Made by a program: the position numbers and the translations under genes. A stretch of DNA of 5,427 nucleotides from a virus. Lineage: Duplodnaviria > Heunggongvirae > Uroviricota > Caudoviricetes. Within the stretch, counting starts at the first letter, position 1. The number at the start of each line of letters is the position of its first letter. Of this stretch, positions 1-5,427 are shown in pieces. The notes beneath the pieces are model-generated. The model searched no databases and was not told the DNA's origin. It saw nothing but the letters and a program-made list of their open reading frames with translations. The stretch lies in the IMG/VR virus record IMGVR_UViG_2534681662_000019; one strand, 5' to 3'.

Positions 1-330
1 CCGGACTGTACCAGCGAAAACGGCACCCTGTCCGAACGCCGGCGGGCTGCCGCGAATAAAATGCGTATGACCGGCAATCTGAGTCGGCGCTTTTATGAAT
101 GGCTGGCTGCGCAGTACGGTTTTACCGTCAGGCTGACGGATTCCACAGAAGGCCAGTGGGTTACGCAGGTCAATATTTACGGTATTAAAAATTATCGCAA
201 CGCAACGGTGCTGGATAATGTTCTGACGCCGTTACGTGTTTATGAATCGGGTGCGCTGGAATGTTTACTGGAGAAATATAAACCCGCGCATCAGATTTAT
301 AAATTTGTTTACCATGACGGAGATAACTAA
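1..330 (+). CDS. 3'-terminal part of a phage tail/baseplate protein gene (Mu gene-48-like); 5' end lies upstream of the window
   Basis: Frame 1 is open from base 1 with no stop before the ATG at 61 listed in the ORF track, so the gene probably starts upstream. Its TAA stop (328-330) overlaps the S start codon as TAATG, a coupling typical of phage late operons. Product assignment is by position only. Confidence 0.55.
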   Translation, partial: PDCTSENGTLSERRRAAANKMRMTGNLSRRFYEWLAAQYGFTVRLTDSTEGQWVTQVNIYGIKNYRNATVLDNVLTPLRVYESGALECLLEKYKPAHQIYKFVYHDGDN

Positions 331-1865
331 TGTTTTATATTGATAACGACAGCGGCGTAACCGTCATGCCGCCCGTATCCGCCCAGCGTAGTGCTATCGT
401 TCGCTGGTTTTCAGAAGGTGACGGGAATAATGCTATCACATGGCCCGGCATGGACTGGTTTAATATTGTGCAGGCGGAGTTATTAAACACGCTGAAAGAA
501 GCCGGTATTCAACCGGATAAAACAAAATTAAACCAGCTTGCACTGTCCATTAAAGCCATTATGAGCAATAACGCGCTGCTGATAAAAAATAACCTCAGCG
601 AAATTAAAACTGCCGGGGCATCAGCACAGCGTACAGCACGTGAAAATCTGGATATCTGGGATGCCAGCCTGAACAAAAAAGGCCTCGTTCAGCTAACCAG
701 TGCCACTGACAGCCCCAGTGAAACGCTGGCAGCCACCGCAAAAGCGGTGAAAATTGCGATGGATAATGCCAATGCCCGTCTGGCAAAAGAGCGGAACGGA
801 GCAGATATTCCCAATAAACCGCTGTTTATCCAAAACCTCGGTTTGCAGGAAACAGTAAACAAGGCTGGTAACGCCGTTCAGCGTTCCGGCGATAAAATGA
901 CCGGAGAACTGAAAATTGGCACGGTGAATGCGCTGCGAATTTTCAATGATGCCTTCGGTCTTATTTTCCGTCGTTCAGAAGAGTACCTTCATTTCATCCC
1001 TACGGCTGAAGGACAAGGCGAAAACGGTGATATCGGCCCATTAAGGCCATTCGCTATAAATCTGAGAACAGGTGCTATATCTGTCAGCCACGGGGCCAAA
1101 ATTGATGGTGGGCTGGCGCTTGGTACAGATAACGCACTGGGCGGTAATTCCATTACTCTCGGAGATAACGACACTGGTATTAAACAGGGCGGCGACGGTG
1201 TCCTTTTATTCTATTCAAATGGACAACTGGCATTTGGGCTTCAACCCGCATCTGCTGATTTTTATAAGCGGGTTGCATATATTCATCAGGGAATAATTCC
1301 TGATGGAAGTGGCGCATTTGCAGACCAGTTGAATAATGCCACCGCGCCTTTTGTTCAGACGCAGTTTGCCTGGAATCCCACTCCTGGTGGTCATTACGTG
1401 CCGATAGTTAAGGGCTTGTCCATTCGCAATGGACAGGGCTATCCCGGCGCGGTCAGCTTTGGGTATTTACTGACAGAACAGTATGGATTTCCGGTTCCAT
1501 GTATTCATATGCGTGGCGATGGCGGTAATGATGCTTTATGGCAGTTTAACCCGAACGATAAATCCTTTATTTCACCGGGTGCTCTTATTGCGGGTGGCGT
1601 CCATTATAACACCGATGGAAATATATTTGGTGGGTGCTGGGGTTCAAACTTAAATGATTACCTGAATAGTTCTTTTATCAGAAATGTGCGTCTGGGAGGC
1701 AGACGTTCTGACGTATTATATCGCGGAGGACTTTGCGAACCAGGTAATGGTCATGTGACAACAGGATTGCAAATTATTGGTGAGGTTGATGGAGATGACT
1801 GGATGGTGTCACGACCACTACAAAAATACATTTCTGGTAACTGGTATAACGTTGAACAGGCATAG
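330..1865 (+). CDS. S: Tail fibre protein S: constant N-terminal part (Sc, about 330-838) fused in frame to the variable part Sv inside the invertible segment
   Basis: 511-aa ORF with ATG overlapping the upstream stop. It reads through gixL (826-851) as ...FIQNLGLQETVNKAGNAV... It shares a Gly-rich block (ALGGNSITLGDNDTGIKQGGDGVL) and a C-terminal block (GLQIIGEVDGDD...WYNVEQA) with the minus-strand S'v cassette. Followed 15 nt later by a tail-fibre assembly gene. Confidence 0.9.
   Translation: MFYIDNDSGVTVMPPVSAQRSAIVRWFSEGDGNNAITWPGMDWFNIVQAELLNTLKEAGIQPDKTKLNQLALSIKAIMSNNALLIKNNLSEIKTAGASAQRTARENLDIWDASLNKKGLVQLTSATDSPSETLAATAKAVKIAMDNANARLAKERNGADIPNKPLFIQNLGLQETVNKAGNAVQRSGDKMTGELKIGTVNALRIFNDAFGLIFRRSEEYLHFIPTAEGQGENGDIGPLRPFAINLRTGAISVSHGAKIDGGLALGTDNALGGNSITLGDNDTGIKQGGDGVLLFYSNGQLAFGLQPASADFYKRVAYIHQGIIPDGSGAFADQLNNATAPFVQTQFAWNPTPGGHYVPIVKGLSIRNGQGYPGAVSFGYLLTEQYGFPVPCIHMRGDGGNDALWQFNPNDKSFISPGALIAGGVHYNTDGNIFGGCWGSNLNDYLNSSFIRNVRLGGRRSDVLYRGGLCEPGNGHVTTGLQIIGEVDGDDWMVSRPLQKYISGNWYNVEQA
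826..851. other. gixL: gixL recombination site for Gin invertase (TTATCCAAAACC-TC-GGTTTGCAGGAA)
   Basis: 26-bp site with two 12-bp half-sites around a central TC dinucleotide (838-839). It matches the gix/hix half-site pattern as I recall it and is present in inverted orientation at 3837-3862. It lies inside the S coding sequence, as expected for the Sc/Sv junction. Confidence 0.85.
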
Positions 1866-1880
1866 CCATCAGGAGAATAT

Positions 1881-2408
1881 ATGCAACATCTGAAAAATAT
1901 TACCGCCGGAAACCCCAAAACCATTGAGCAGTATCAGCTTACGAAAAAAGCTGGCGTTATCTGGCTATATACAGAAGACGGTAAAAACTGGTATGACGAA
2001 TTAAAAAACTTTCAGGATGATACTTTAAAAATAGCTTATGACCAGAAGGGGATTATTCGTTGTATTGAGAAAGACGTATCAATGCTTAACCCTGACGGGT
2101 TAAGTGTTGTTGAGTTACCGAATATAACAGCCAACCGTCGCGCCGATATCTCGGGAAACTGGAAGTTTCTGGATGGTAAAGTAGTAAAGCGGGAATATAC
2201 AAAACAGGAACTGCAACAGCAGGCAGAGTTACAAAAAGCCGCTTTGCTTTCCGAAGCGGAGTCTGTGATTCAACCGCTGGAACGTGCTGTCAGACTGAAT
2301 ATGGCAACTGATGAGGAACGCACACGACTGGAATCATGGGAACGCTACAGCGTTATGGTCAGCCGTGTGGATACTGCAAAGCCTGAATGGCCACAGAAAC
2401 CAGAATAA
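1881..2408 (+). CDS. U: Tail fibre assembly protein U (chaperone for S)
   Basis: 175-aa ORF with AGGAG (1871-1875) 5 nt upstream of the ATG. Clear paralogue of the minus-strand 177-aa ORF (both start MQHLKNI..GNPKT.EQYQLTK...[12 protein letters not shown] and share ITANRRAD). Position directly after the fibre gene. Confidence 0.9.
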
Positions 2409-2417
2409 CAACAAATT

Positions 2418-2440
2418 AAGGCCCGTACGGGCCTTTTCTT
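2418..2440. terminator. Bidirectional rho-independent terminator between the convergent U and U' genes
   Basis: Hairpin aaGGCCC-gtac-GGGCCtt (2418-2435) followed by TTTTCTT on the + strand and preceded by an A/T-rich run (TTAATTTGTTGTT on the - strand). It sits in the 30-bp gap between the U stop (2406-2408) and the U' stop (2439-2441). Confidence 0.6.
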
Positions 2441-2972
2441 ATTCTGGTGGTTCCGGGAATGTTACAGGAAGAACCGAGGTATCAGTTGTCTCAACCTGTT
2501 GCACGTATCGCATCCAGTTCATCAGTTGCTGTCTGTCTGAATCAGTGATAATCCCCAAAGTAAGCTGTGTTTGCCAGAACTGCGTTTTTTCTCTGGCCTG
2601 CTGTAATAATATTTTTTTCTGGTTTTCCGTCTGTAGGCGCAACTCTTCTTCGGTATATACACGTTTAATGACTGCGCCATCTTTAAACATCCATTTACCT
2701 GAGTCGTCAGCACGCCGGTTGGCGGTAATATCAGGAATCTCAACGACGCTATAACCTTCAGGGTTAAGTGTGGAGGCATCTTTGGTTATGGCAACAATAA
2801 TATTATTTTCGTCGTAAACAATCTTTATGGTGTCTTCCTGAAAGTTATTTACTTCCTCATACCAGTTTTTACCGTCTTCTGTATATAACCAGATAACATC
2901 AAAATTCTTTGTTAGCTGATATTGCTCTTTTGTTTTTGGATTTCCTGACTTAATATTTTTTAAATGCTGCAT
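2439..2972 (-). CDS. U': Tail fibre assembly protein U' (chaperone for the alternative fibre S')
   Basis: 177-aa ORF on the minus strand, paralogous to U. Its ATG (2970-2972) lies 1 nt after the S'v stop codon (TAA, complement of 2976-2978), with AGGTG just upstream on the minus strand. Confidence 0.9.
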
Positions 2973-2975
2973 AAT

Positions 2976-3848
2976 TTACACCTGTGCGACGTTATACCAT
3001 GTGCCATTGATGTATTTTTGTATTGGTCTGAAGATGGCTTCATCATCGCCATCTACTTCACCAATGATTCTTAATCCGGTAATTGCGTGTCCGGCTTTTT
3101 CATAACGACCACCACGCGCCATCAATTGAACAACACGCGTACCCAGGCGAACATCTTTCACATAGCGGGAATCAAAATTCCCCCAGTTGCTGGGTTGTAT
3201 CTGACCGTTAACAGCAAATATTACTGAGTTATCTGTATTTCGCTGACTATAGAAATGCCAGCCAGAATCATCGCCAAGCTCTGCAACAGTTGGCCTTGAC
3301 GAAGCGCCCCATAAATTAAACCCTACGTTCTTCGTGGAGTTGTTGGAGCTGGATAGCGTGAATTTTTTACCATCCCCGGCCTGAATATTTTTAAAAGCAA
3401 TAGCCACTCCATTCTGAAAGCGGAATACACGCTGACTATTAGCATAAACATCCAGAATACCGTCTCCATTCTGTTTAAATCCGGTGTCATTATCACCAAG
3501 AACAATAGAGCTACCACCTAACGCATTCGTCGTACCAACTCCAAGACTGCCATTAATGACGGCATTTACCAGAATATTTAGTGCATCCCATTTCAGCGTC
3601 ATCAGGTCTTTTGTTGTGGTGCTCTGGCGGCTTCTCCATTTGAAATATTCATTGCCGTTGTCGCCTGTTTCAAACCACATGTATGAATCAGTGTCACCAT
3701 CGGCATCATTTTTAAATCCAATCTTCGCCCAGTCAGTATTTCGAATCCAGGCAAGGATTGAGTCATTTTCAAAAGTAAGCCCACCGGACAAGGTATCGCC
3801 ATTTTTTTGCACGGCGTTACCAGCCTTGTTTACCGTTTCCTGCAAACC
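2976..3848 (-). CDS. S': S'v: promoterless, startless variable C-terminal cassette of the alternative tail fibre, expressed only after G inversion as an Sc-S'v fusion
   Basis: Minus-strand open frame homologous to Sv at both ends (QETVNKAGNAVQ... and ...GLRIIGEVDGDD...WYNVAQV). It has no ATG or RBS of its own; the ORF track's M at 3845 is a TTG that is the Leu codon of the shared ...NLGLQETV... junction. The frame is closed one codon outside the crossover by a TAA (complement of 3855-3857) within gixR. Confidence 0.85.
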   Translation of the reverse strand, partial: GLQETVNKAGNAVQKNGDTLSGGLTFENDSILAWIRNTDWAKIGFKNDADGDTDSYMWFETGDNGNEYFKWRSRQSTTTKDLMTLKWDALNILVNAVINGSLGVGTTNALGGSSIVLGDNDTGFKQNGDGILDVYANSQRVFRFQNGVAIAFKNIQAGDGKKFTLSSSNNSTKNVGFNLWGASSRPTVAELGDDSGWHFYSQRNTDNSVIFAVNGQIQPSNWGNFDSRYVKDVRLGTRVVQLMARGGRYEKAGHAITGLRIIGEVDGDDEAIFRPIQKYINGTWYNVAQV

Positions 3849-3870
3849 GAGGTTTTAGATAATGGCTGTT
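3835..3870 (+). promoter_or_regulatory. Candidate gin promoter overlapping gixR (-10-like GATAAT at 3858-3863)
   Basis: GATAAT hexamer inside the outer gixR half-site, about 55 nt upstream of the gin start; the -35 is weak. In the Gin/Hin/Cin family the invertase promoter is reported to overlap the adjacent recombination site. The exact hexamers here are my inference. Confidence 0.3.
3837..3862. other. gixR: gixR recombination site (TTCCTGCAAACC-GA-GGTTTTAGATAA), inverted relative to gixL
   Basis: Its reverse complement is TTATCTAAAACC-TC-GGTTTGCAGGAA, identical to gixL except for one base (C in gixL, T in gixR). Central dinucleotide at 3849-3850. Located between the S'v cassette and gin. 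Confidence 0.85.
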
Positions 3871-3916
3871 TCCGGCCTGCATGGCATGATTTGCGCTTTT
3901 AAACGGGAGATCCAGA

Positions 3917-4510
3917 GTGCTGATTGGCTATGTAAGGGTATCAACAAATGACCAGAATACAGACCTGCAACGAAACGCTCTTGTTTGTGCAGGATGTGAA
4001 CAAATATTTGAAGATAAATTAAGCGGAACAAGGACAGACAGACCTGGATTAAAGCGCGCTTTAAAGCGTCTTCAAAAAGGTGACACACTGGTTGTCTGGA
4101 AACTGGATCGCCTCGGGCGAAGCATGAAACATCTGATTTCTCTCGTCGGAGAACTACGGGAGCGAGGGATTAATTTTCGCAGCCTTACTGACAGTATTGA
4201 TACGTCATCCCCAATGGGGCGTTTTTTCTTCCACGTTATGGGTGCCCTAGCTGAAATGGAACGAGAACTAATCATCGAGCGAACGATGGCAGGACTTGCT
4301 GCCGCCAGAAATAAAGGCCGTATTGGTGGGCGACCACCTAAACTAACCAAAGCGGAATGGGAGCAGGCCGGGCGTTTATTAGCACAAGGAATCCCCCGCA
4401 AGCAGGTTGCATTGATCTACGATGTGGCCCTGTCAACTCTGTATAAAAAACACCCCGCGAAACGAACGCACATAGAAAACGACGATCGAATCAATCAAAT
4501 CGATCGGTAA
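3917..4510 (+). CDS. gin: Site-specific DNA invertase Gin (serine recombinase, resolvase/invertase family)
   Basis: ORF starting at GTG 3917 with GGGAG (3905-3909) upstream. N-terminus MLIGYVRVSTNDQ has the catalytic Ser at position 9. The catalytic domain and C-terminal helix-turn-helix (GGRPPKLTKAEWEQA...) are characteristic of Gin/Pin/Hin/Cin. Located directly beside gixR. Confidence 0.95.
   Translation: MLIGYVRVSTNDQNTDLQRNALVCAGCEQIFEDKLSGTRTDRPGLKRALKRLQKGDTLVVWKLDRLGRSMKHLISLVGELRERGINFRSLTDSIDTSSPMGRFFFHVMGALAEMERELIIERTMAGLAAARNKGRIGGRPPKLTKAEWEQAGRLLAQGIPRKQVALIYDVALSTLYKKHPAKRTHIENDDRINQIDR
3960..4075. promoter_or_regulatory. Candidate Fis-dependent recombinational enhancer (sis) within the 5' part of gin
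   Basis: In Mu the enhancer lies inside the start of the gin coding sequence. Here there are Fis-like 15-mers of the G-N13-C type with A/T-rich cores, for example GAAGATAAATTAAGC (4010-4024) and GCGCTTTAAAGCGTC (4056-4070), plus a weaker one at 3962-3976 whose centre is 48 bp from the first. The Fis motif is degenerate, so this placement is tentative. Confidence 0.25.
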
Positions 4511-4518
4511 TACAGATC
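4484..4518. promoter_or_regulatory. Cluster of three GATC (Dam) sites upstream of the mom promoter: the methylation-sensitive OxyR (MomR) operator
   Basis: GATC at 4484-4487, 4502-4505 and 4515-4518, each within a GATCGA/CGATCG context, just upstream of the -35 region. In Mu, OxyR binds this region when it is unmethylated and represses mom. The sites lie inside the last codons of gin. Confidence 0.65.
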
Positions 4519-4520
4519 GA

Positions 4521-4572
4521 TTATGTCTCAATAACCACACTCAACCCATGATGTTTTTTAAGATAGTGGCGA
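4521..4572 (+). promoter_or_regulatory. mom operon promoter (Pmom): C-activator dyad, weak -35, 19-bp spacer with T6 run, -10 TAAGAT
   Basis: TTAT-N6-ATAA dyad (4521-4534); -35-like ACCACA (4534-4539); 19-bp spacer; TTTTTT (4554-4559) abutting the -10 TAAGAT (4559-4564). This is about 30 nt upstream of the com RBS and matches what I recall of the activator-dependent Mu mom promoter. Confidence 0.55.
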
Positions 4573-4592
4573 ATTGATGCAAAGGAGGTGAG

Positions 4593-4781
4593 ATGAAATC
4601 AATTCGCTGTAAAAACTGCAACAAACTGTTATTTAAGGCGGATTCCTTTGATCACATTGAAATCAGGTGTCCGCGTTGCAAACGTCACATCATAATGCTG
4701 AATGCCTGCGAGCATCCCACGGAGAAACATTGTGGGAAAAGAGAAAAAATCACGCATTCTGACGAAACCGTGCGTTATTGA
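4593..4781 (+). CDS. com: Com, zinc-finger translational activator of mom
   Basis: 62-aa ORF with strong RBS AGGAGG (4583-4588). Cys-X2-Cys...Cys-X2-Cys motif (C6, C9, C26, C29). Its 3' end overlaps the mom start by about 50 nt, as in the Mu com-mom operon. Confidence 0.9.
4715..4737 (+). promoter_or_regulatory. mRNA hairpin (translation-inhibition structure) sequestering the mom start codon
   Basis: UCCCAC (4715-4720) pairs with GUGGGA (4732-4737). The 11-nt loop GGAGAAACAUU contains the mom Shine-Dalgarno GGAG, and the GUG start (4732-4734) is inside the 3' arm of the stem. Consistent with Com-dependent translational activation. Confidence 0.55.
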
Positions 4782-5427
4782 GTATGAAGGCCAGATTGTT
4801 GGCTATGGTTCAAAGGAGCTGCGCGTTGAAACCATATCCTGCTGGCTGGCCCGCACAATTATTCAGGCAAAGCACTATTCCCGCCGTTTTGTGAATAACT
4901 CTTACCTCCACCTGGGAGTATTCAGCGGACGCGATCTGGTTGGCGTTCTCCAGTGGGGATATGCCCTTAACCCCAACTCAGGTCGTCGTGTCGTGCTTGA
5001 AACGGATAACCGGGGCTATATGGAGTTGAACCGCATGTGGCTACACGACGACATGCCCCGCAACTCTGAATCACGGGCCATCAGTTATGCACTGAAAACC
5101 ATAAGGTTACTGTATCCGTCAGTGGAGTGGGTTCAGTCTTTTGCAGACGAACGCTGCGGACGTGCTGGCGTTGTGTATCAGGCGTCAAATTTTGATTTTA
5201 TTGGCAGCCATGAAAGCACGTTCTACGAGCTGGATGGTGAGTGGTATCACGAGATAACGATGAACGCGATTAAACGCGGTGGACAACGAGGCGTGTATTT
5301 ACGGGCTAATAAAGAGCGTGCCGTGGTGCACAAATTTAATCAGTATCGCTACATCAGGTTCCTGAACAAGCGAGCAAGGAAGCGACTAAATACCAAGCTA
5401 TTCAAGGTTCAGCCATACCCTAAGTGA
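4732..5427 (+). CDS. mom: Mom, DNA adenine-modification protein (anti-restriction)
   Basis: Long ORF ending at the window edge. GTG 4732 has GGAG 7 nt upstream and gives 231 aa, the length I recall for Mu Mom. The in-frame ATG at 4702 (241 aa) used by the ORF track has no RBS. Overlaps com in a different frame. Confidence 0.85.

Follow-up and report, generated by a model that had tools for sequence, protein, structure and literature searches.

A mom gene of the Mu/D108 type beside the right end of a probable transposable prophage of E. coli

The closest described counterpart of the gene studied here is mom of phage Mu. The Mu Mom reaction has been reconstituted in vitro from only Mom, tRNA(Gly), glycine, GlyRS, and ATP (PMC13219725, Nat Commun 2026). 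Its product appears in the literature as N6-(1-acetamido)adenine, N6-carbamoylmethyl-adenine, 6-NcmdA, or ncm6A, all of which are names for the same compound (PMC3299994, PMC7261163, PMC13219725). Ten residues of Mu Mom have been mutagenised (Y28, W48, H58, Y59, R111, S124, D149, R151, Y159, and W181), and activity was lost in nine of the ten mutants, with no significant effect seen for Y28A (PMC13219725); the same residues are found in 231-aa numbering in PMC7261163. R111 and S124 were essential for the reaction, isotope labels were traced through the rearrangement, deletion of an HTH-like insertion abolished activity, and the authors of structure 8BV8 describe the fold as GNAT (PMC13219725).

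The control of mom in Mu is equally well described. Com is an RNA-binding translational activator, and it binds a small hairpin with a six-residue loop; a translation-inhibition stem-loop (TIS) carries the GGAG ribosome-binding site (RBS) in its loop and 5' arm and the GUG start codon in its 3' arm (PMC6483171). The roles of Dam, OxyR, and C at mom come from the established Mu literature (e.g., PMC4461284 and PMC3378877).

The window analysed here is a stretch of 5,427 nucleotides. The initial annotation had read positions 4732-5427 as Mom, with the window ending at its stop codon, and the reading frame, the Pfam match, and the near identity to wild-type Mu Mom all bear this out. We consider it about 93% probable that the gene is mom from a transposable E. 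coli prophage of the Mu/D108 type and the last gene before its right end.

Frame, conservation, and start codon of mom

The mom coding sequence (4732-5427, plus strand) runs open from GTG 4732 to a TGA at 5425-5427 for 231 codons, its stop being the final three bases of the window. It corresponds, base for base, to the Mu mom coordinates 35907-36602 in AF083977, and its product would be a GNAT-fold adenine-N6 glycyl (carbamoylmethyl) transferase. No rival open reading frame of at least 40 aa was found over the mom body in the other frames; the sole overlap was a 42-aa minus-strand frame at 4629-4757. The protein matched the Mom family profile PF25680 across its full length (positions 1-202 of 202) with an E value of 2.2e-75 and 253.2 bits, against a cutoff of 27.1. 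A scan of Mom against NCBIfam gave no family hit with an E value of 0.01 or lower, although 'tRNA(Gly)-dependent adenine aminoacyltransferase Mom' is already the name used in some RefSeq records.

A search of the PDB returned 8BV8, deposited as 'Methylcarbamoylase mom', at an E value of 3e-157, the two sequences agreeing at 228 of 231 residues. Of the three mismatches, one is S124A, which was engineered into the dead variant used for crystallisation. When the comparison is made with wild-type Mu Mom, as translated from AF083977, just T56A and V133T remain (241-aa numbering; 229/231 identical). All ten residues mutagenised in Mu are present in the window protein, and six of them (H58, Y59, R111, D149, R151, and Y159) are invariant in a family alignment of seven sequences, which brings in homologues from Pseudomonas, Arthrobacter, Aeromonas, and Porphyromonas phages at 35–53% identity. 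Positions 56 and 133 vary freely across these homologues, one of which also has alanine at 56, and the HTH-like insertion (residues about 175-209) is unchanged from Mu Mom.

The fold of the window protein is GNAT, given its 228/231 identity to the solved structure, which agrees with the adenine-modifying-enzyme fold expected in the initial annotation. This assignment rests on the identity to 8BV8 because a single-sequence AlphaFold2 model of the 231-aa protein was unusable (mean pLDDT 38.6, pTM 0.28). The anti-restriction DNA modification role put forward earlier is likewise well founded on the Mom identity and the ten retained residues, with the function itself probably carried over from Mu.

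At the codon level, we counted 21 synonymous and 2 non-synonymous differences from Mu mom, over ~ 159 synonymous and ~ 534 non-synonymous sites. Judged from the sequences compared, this 21:2 ratio is what we take as the signature of purifying selection on Mom. A reading of the gene as a pseudogene or remnant was rejected given the intact frame, the 21:2 substitution pattern, and the intact regulatory and end sequences. By nucleotide identity, the nearest phages were D108 (99.0%), then Yersinia Mu-like phages (98.4%), then SfMu and Mu (97.1%).

The main uncertainty in the gene model concerns its start. An optional 10-codon N-terminal extension (4702-4731, plus strand) opens at an in-frame ATG at 4702 and gives a 241-aa form. 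If translation began there, the GTG-based coding sequence would be 30 nt too short. The ATG opens the longest open reading frame, it is the start used by the D108 record, PGAP, and the gene calls on the contig, and the residue numbering of the 2026 structural paper counts from it (PMC13219725). The Mu reference, however, places the RBS at 35896-35899, equivalent to window positions 4721-4724, and the start at the GTG equivalent to 4732; 'the Mom GUG start codon' is also placed inside the TIS stem by PMC6483171. GGAG lies 8 nt before GTG 4732, whereas ATG 4702 falls within the Com hairpin and lacks an obvious purine-rich RBS upstream. Function does not discriminate between the two, since Mom remains active when its first ten residues are removed (PMC13219725). 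The choice is ambiguous, with GTG 4732 being the likelier physiological start and initiation at ATG 4702 unlikely.

The com gene and the control region of mom

All features of the Mu com-mom operon are present: an overlapping com, the Com hairpin, a TIS that hides the GUG, Pmom, and three GATC sites. The com gene (4593-4781, plus strand) encodes a 62-aa zinc-ribbon translational activator of mom (PF10122, E 2.7e-9); it overlaps mom by 50 nt in a different frame, and its DNA and protein sequences match those of Mu com exactly. RefSeq and PGAP name Com a 'Com family DNA-binding transcriptional regulator'.

On the plus strand, the Com target hairpin in the mom mRNA (4702-4715) reads AUGC-CUGCGA-GCAU, with a 4-bp stem and a 6-nt loop, and is identical to that of Mu. 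The TIS follows at 4715-4737 (plus strand), where the RNA fold covers the GGAG RBS and holds the GUG at 4732-4734 in its 3' arm. When the 50 nt from 4696 to 4745 were folded, the TIS formed with an 8-bp stem at -12.1 kcal/mol (z -2.0). The small Com hairpin was shifted by one register in this minimum free energy fold (UGCU/AGCA, one base outwards) relative to the published pairing. An Rfam scan of the whole window at gathering thresholds gave no match, there being no curated RNA family for the Com/TIS element.

Upstream of com, the late promoter Pmom (4518-4584, plus strand) is the equivalent of the Mu promoter feature 35693-35759, dependent on activator C and without a -35 consensus. A sigma-70 consensus scan of 4400-5600 found no promoter and gave no positive promoter evidence, as expected at Pmom because this promoter depends on C. 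A TTAT-N6-ATAA motif at about 4519-4532 is presumably the C site, an assignment that we take from established knowledge of Mu and PMC4461284; its spacer has two D108-type changes, at 4526 and 4528. Three GATC (Dam) sites lie upstream of Pmom on the plus strand, at 4484, 4502, and 4515 (region 4484-4518), and are conserved with Mu and D108. We take this cluster to be the region where, in Mu, host OxyR represses mom in a methylation-sensitive way.

The identity to Mu is unevenly distributed across this region. Over the 338 nt from 4529 to 4866, which take in the -10 of Pmom, com, the Com/TIS RNA, and mom codons 1-45, identity to Mu is 100%; it falls to 95.5% in the remainder of mom (4867-5427) and to 97.6% in the 82 nt upstream of 4529. 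The fully identical patch could reflect overlapping coding and RNA-structure constraint, or it could be a recombination patch.

The regulation, chemistry, and anti-restriction effect that we expect in this prophage are carried over from the literature on Mu Mom, which is 99% identical. On this basis, C would activate Pmom late in lytic growth, provided that the three GATC sites are Dam-methylated so that OxyR cannot bind. The com-mom transcript would then be made, and Com would bind through its zinc ribbon to the hairpin just 5' of the TIS. This binding would open the stem-loop that hides the mom RBS and GUG, allowing mom to be translated.

The right end, the insertion site, and the state of the prophage

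The window is identical to bases 1-5427 of AQDT01000040.1 (GCA_000355595.1), a draft contig of E. coli that is therefore its source. Base 1 of this contig is base 1 of the window and lies inside the prophage, with the left ~ 31 kb in another part of the assembly. Because the draft contig breaks exactly at the window start, the limits of the window are set by a contig end and a gene end rather than by biology.

Aligned with the terminal 115 bp of Mu, the 115 bp that follow the mom stop (contig 5428-5542) agree at 112 positions. The prophage right end has the terminus GCTTCA, reading ...GCCGCTTCA, with host DNA beyond the CA. A right end had been predicted shortly downstream of the window, and it was found exactly 115 bp past the stop. 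The 13.4-kb locus has four matches to the MuA-binding consensus YMYNWRAARYRCGAAAR, and three of them lie within these 115 bp, at contig positions 5471-5487 (plus), 5494-5510 (minus), and 5516-5532 (minus), all within ~ 75 bp of the end. From its sequence matches, we read this trio as the R3, R2, and R1 layout of Mu attR. A D108-type right end was ruled out at this locus, as the source contig lacks gene 56, whose presence would move the end to ~ 580 bp away. Contig 5448-5466, 21 nt past the mom stop, also holds a perfect 7-bp hairpin, AGCAGTA-ATTAA-TACTGCT, with a T-rich tail, which could serve as the terminator of the com-mom transcript. The Mu equivalent has TACATCT as its 3' arm and forms a weaker hairpin.

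The host flank of the source contig continues, at 100% identity, in other E. coli chromosomes, such as AZ155 and many other strains. In AZ155, the empty target reads ...TTGCAAGCA up to the insertion point and GCCGTTATGATC... after it, inside an inverse-autotransporter beta-domain gene. The insertion (contig 5543 onward) is in an intimin/invasin-type adhesin gene, upstream of a 2139-aa Ig-like repeat open reading frame. The target duplication expected for the window prophage is GCCGT; its left junction is on another contig. The Mu left end reads TGTATTGATTCACTTGAAGTACG..., and the host flank predicted before it under a GCCGT duplication is ...TTGCAAGCAGCCGT. A complete D108-like 37-kb prophage in ldtD of E. 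coli BLSE177-2012 (NZ_OZ369168.1) carries a 5-bp duplication, CTGAT, at both ends, and it is in this relative that a target duplication was verified. The exact 241-aa Mom sequence was found in 13 contigs, with seven distinct host flanks among the eight loci compared, as expected for a phage that transposes.

These observations bear on whether mom serves an active phage here or is an intact, silent passenger in a defective or incomplete prophage. The contig does start inside the prophage, leaving the left 31 kb, including the C gene and the left end, off the contig, and mosaicism is frequent among the Mu-like prophages of E. coli genomes. Against this, the excess of synonymous over non-synonymous differences from Mu points to continued selection on Mom, and the promoter, com, the regulatory RNA, the right-end transposase sites, and the terminal CA are all intact. 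The identical protein at seven distinct chromosomal sites in different strains argues for recent transposition or lysogenisation by an active phage, and the close relative in ldtD is a complete prophage with its target duplication. We regard a passenger gene that serves no phage as very improbable and retain the reading of mom as the last gene of a Mu/D108-type prophage.

The remainder of the window, up to com, holds in order the 3' end of a baseplate/tail gene (61-330), the tail-fibre gene S (330-1865, plus strand), U (1881-2408), the inverted U' (2439-2972) and S' (2976-3845), and the serine invertase gene gin (3917-4510). Inverted repeats of 55 nt at 826-880 and 3808-3862, 95% complementary, bound a segment of ~ 3 kb with the variable part of S and U on one strand and U' and S' on the other; we identify it as the invertible G segment, adjoined by gin. 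It is in the S/U-expressing orientation, because S is continuous on the plus strand. The gin product has 197 aa, as in D108, compared with 193 aa in Mu. The 3' end of gin runs into the GATC cluster upstream of Pmom because the Mu stop TAA reads CAA here (about 4497).

The variable parts of the tail-fibre genes (330-1865 and 2976-3845) are unlike those of most Mu-like prophages. At least 80% of the window was covered in only 5 of 5426 complete E. coli genomes, with parts matched in over 1400; differences in the tail-fibre variable regions explain why so few genomes cover the whole window. As far as sequence can tell, the tail-fibre variation suggests host-range cassette shuffling, and we read the prophage as a mosaic that is D108-like through gin and most of mom and Mu-like in the last ~ 25 nt of mom and the right end. 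The mom body itself is present in 97 of the 5426 genomes, and Mom-like proteins occur in 233 phage records from many hosts. Across the complete E. coli genomes, mom is labelled under at least four names, or as 'hypothetical protein', a label that genome records still frequently give it alongside 'protein mom'. The gene is uncommon in E. coli yet thoroughly characterised.

Chemistry of Mom and comparison with known systems

By analogy with Mu, a dimeric GNAT-fold Mom would move the glycine of charged tRNA(Gly) onto the N6 of adenine in double-stranded DNA, in a loose SASNY context. The N6-glycyl adduct would rearrange on the base to N6-carbamoylmethyl-adenine, and the modified DNA would resist many restriction endonucleases, which would widen the host range of the phage. 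We transfer this Gly-tRNA(Gly) mechanism to the window allele with high confidence because only two variable positions separate it from Mu Mom. The initial annotation had described conversion of adenine to N6-(1-acetamido)adenine. It named the right product, which is the same compound as 6-NcmdA. Its formation is not a simple acetamido transfer, as the donor is Gly-tRNA(Gly) and the adduct rearranges on the base.

A different chemistry has been proposed for the same gene and product, in which acetyl-CoA and bound Fe2+/3+ would act through radical oxidation, a Schiff base, and amidation (Karambelkar et al. 2020). Purified Mom did bind acetyl-CoA and iron, and this binding was lost in H48A, Y49A, S114A, D139A, and Y149A (231-aa numbering; PMC7261163). 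The residues altered in those five mutants are all kept in the window protein; however, both models place these residues along the GNAT donor cleft, so that their conservation fails to discriminate. Activity in vitro was not reconstituted in that work, as its authors state (PMC7261163), whereas the later reconstitution used neither acetyl-CoA nor added iron (PMC13219725). The acetyl-CoA/iron model is already largely refuted, and we give it an extremely low probability, keeping to the Gly-tRNA(Gly) mechanism.

Residues 11-19 of Mom have been proposed to contact tRNA. It is equally hard to credit that T56A, two residues before the catalytic H58-Y59, and V133T shift DNA preference or donor selectivity, or that both isoforms are made in vivo with different properties, given that the exact window protein is common among E. 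coli prophages and both substituted positions are variable in the family.

The window mom is a textbook gene in a textbook place, already known and thoroughly characterised. The finding assigns the window to the right end of a prophage of the Mu/D108 type and has little significance beyond correct annotation. It does call for a mechanistic update: the appropriate description of Mom is now a tRNA(Gly)-dependent adenine aminoacyl transferase in the GNAT superfamily, in place of the superseded label of an acetamido or methylcarbamoyl transferase with an unspecified donor.

Compared with Mu Mom (AF083977 Mu_53; 8BV8), the window gene shares its length (231 or 241 aa), start, stop, and C-terminus. 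The com gene, Com hairpin, and TIS are identical between the two, and the 115-bp spacing from mom to the right end is equal. The differences are 25 nucleotides in the mom body and the changes at 4526 and 4528 in the C-site spacer. D108 (GQ357916) is 99.0% identical in nucleotides over 4500-5420 and has T133, the promoter spacer variant, and the 197-aa gin in common with the window. Its Mom differs, ending in ...FRIQPYPKSSSD at 245 aa and carrying M198, and a 447-bp D108-specific gene 56 lies between mom and the right end, whereas the window prophage is without gene 56.

Beyond the phages, the depositors of 8BV8 superposed FemX and the tRNA-acetylating toxin TacT on Mom and found the GNAT core fold in common (PMC13219725). 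The PDB search showed no sequence-level similarity of Mom to FemX or TacT. The acyl donor of FemX is an aminoacyl-tRNA, as it is for Mom. The acceptors of FemX and TacT are peptidoglycan precursors or the aminoacyl-tRNA itself, whereas the acceptor of Mom is DNA, and Mom alone among the three has the extra HTH-like insertion (about 175-209) for DNA binding.
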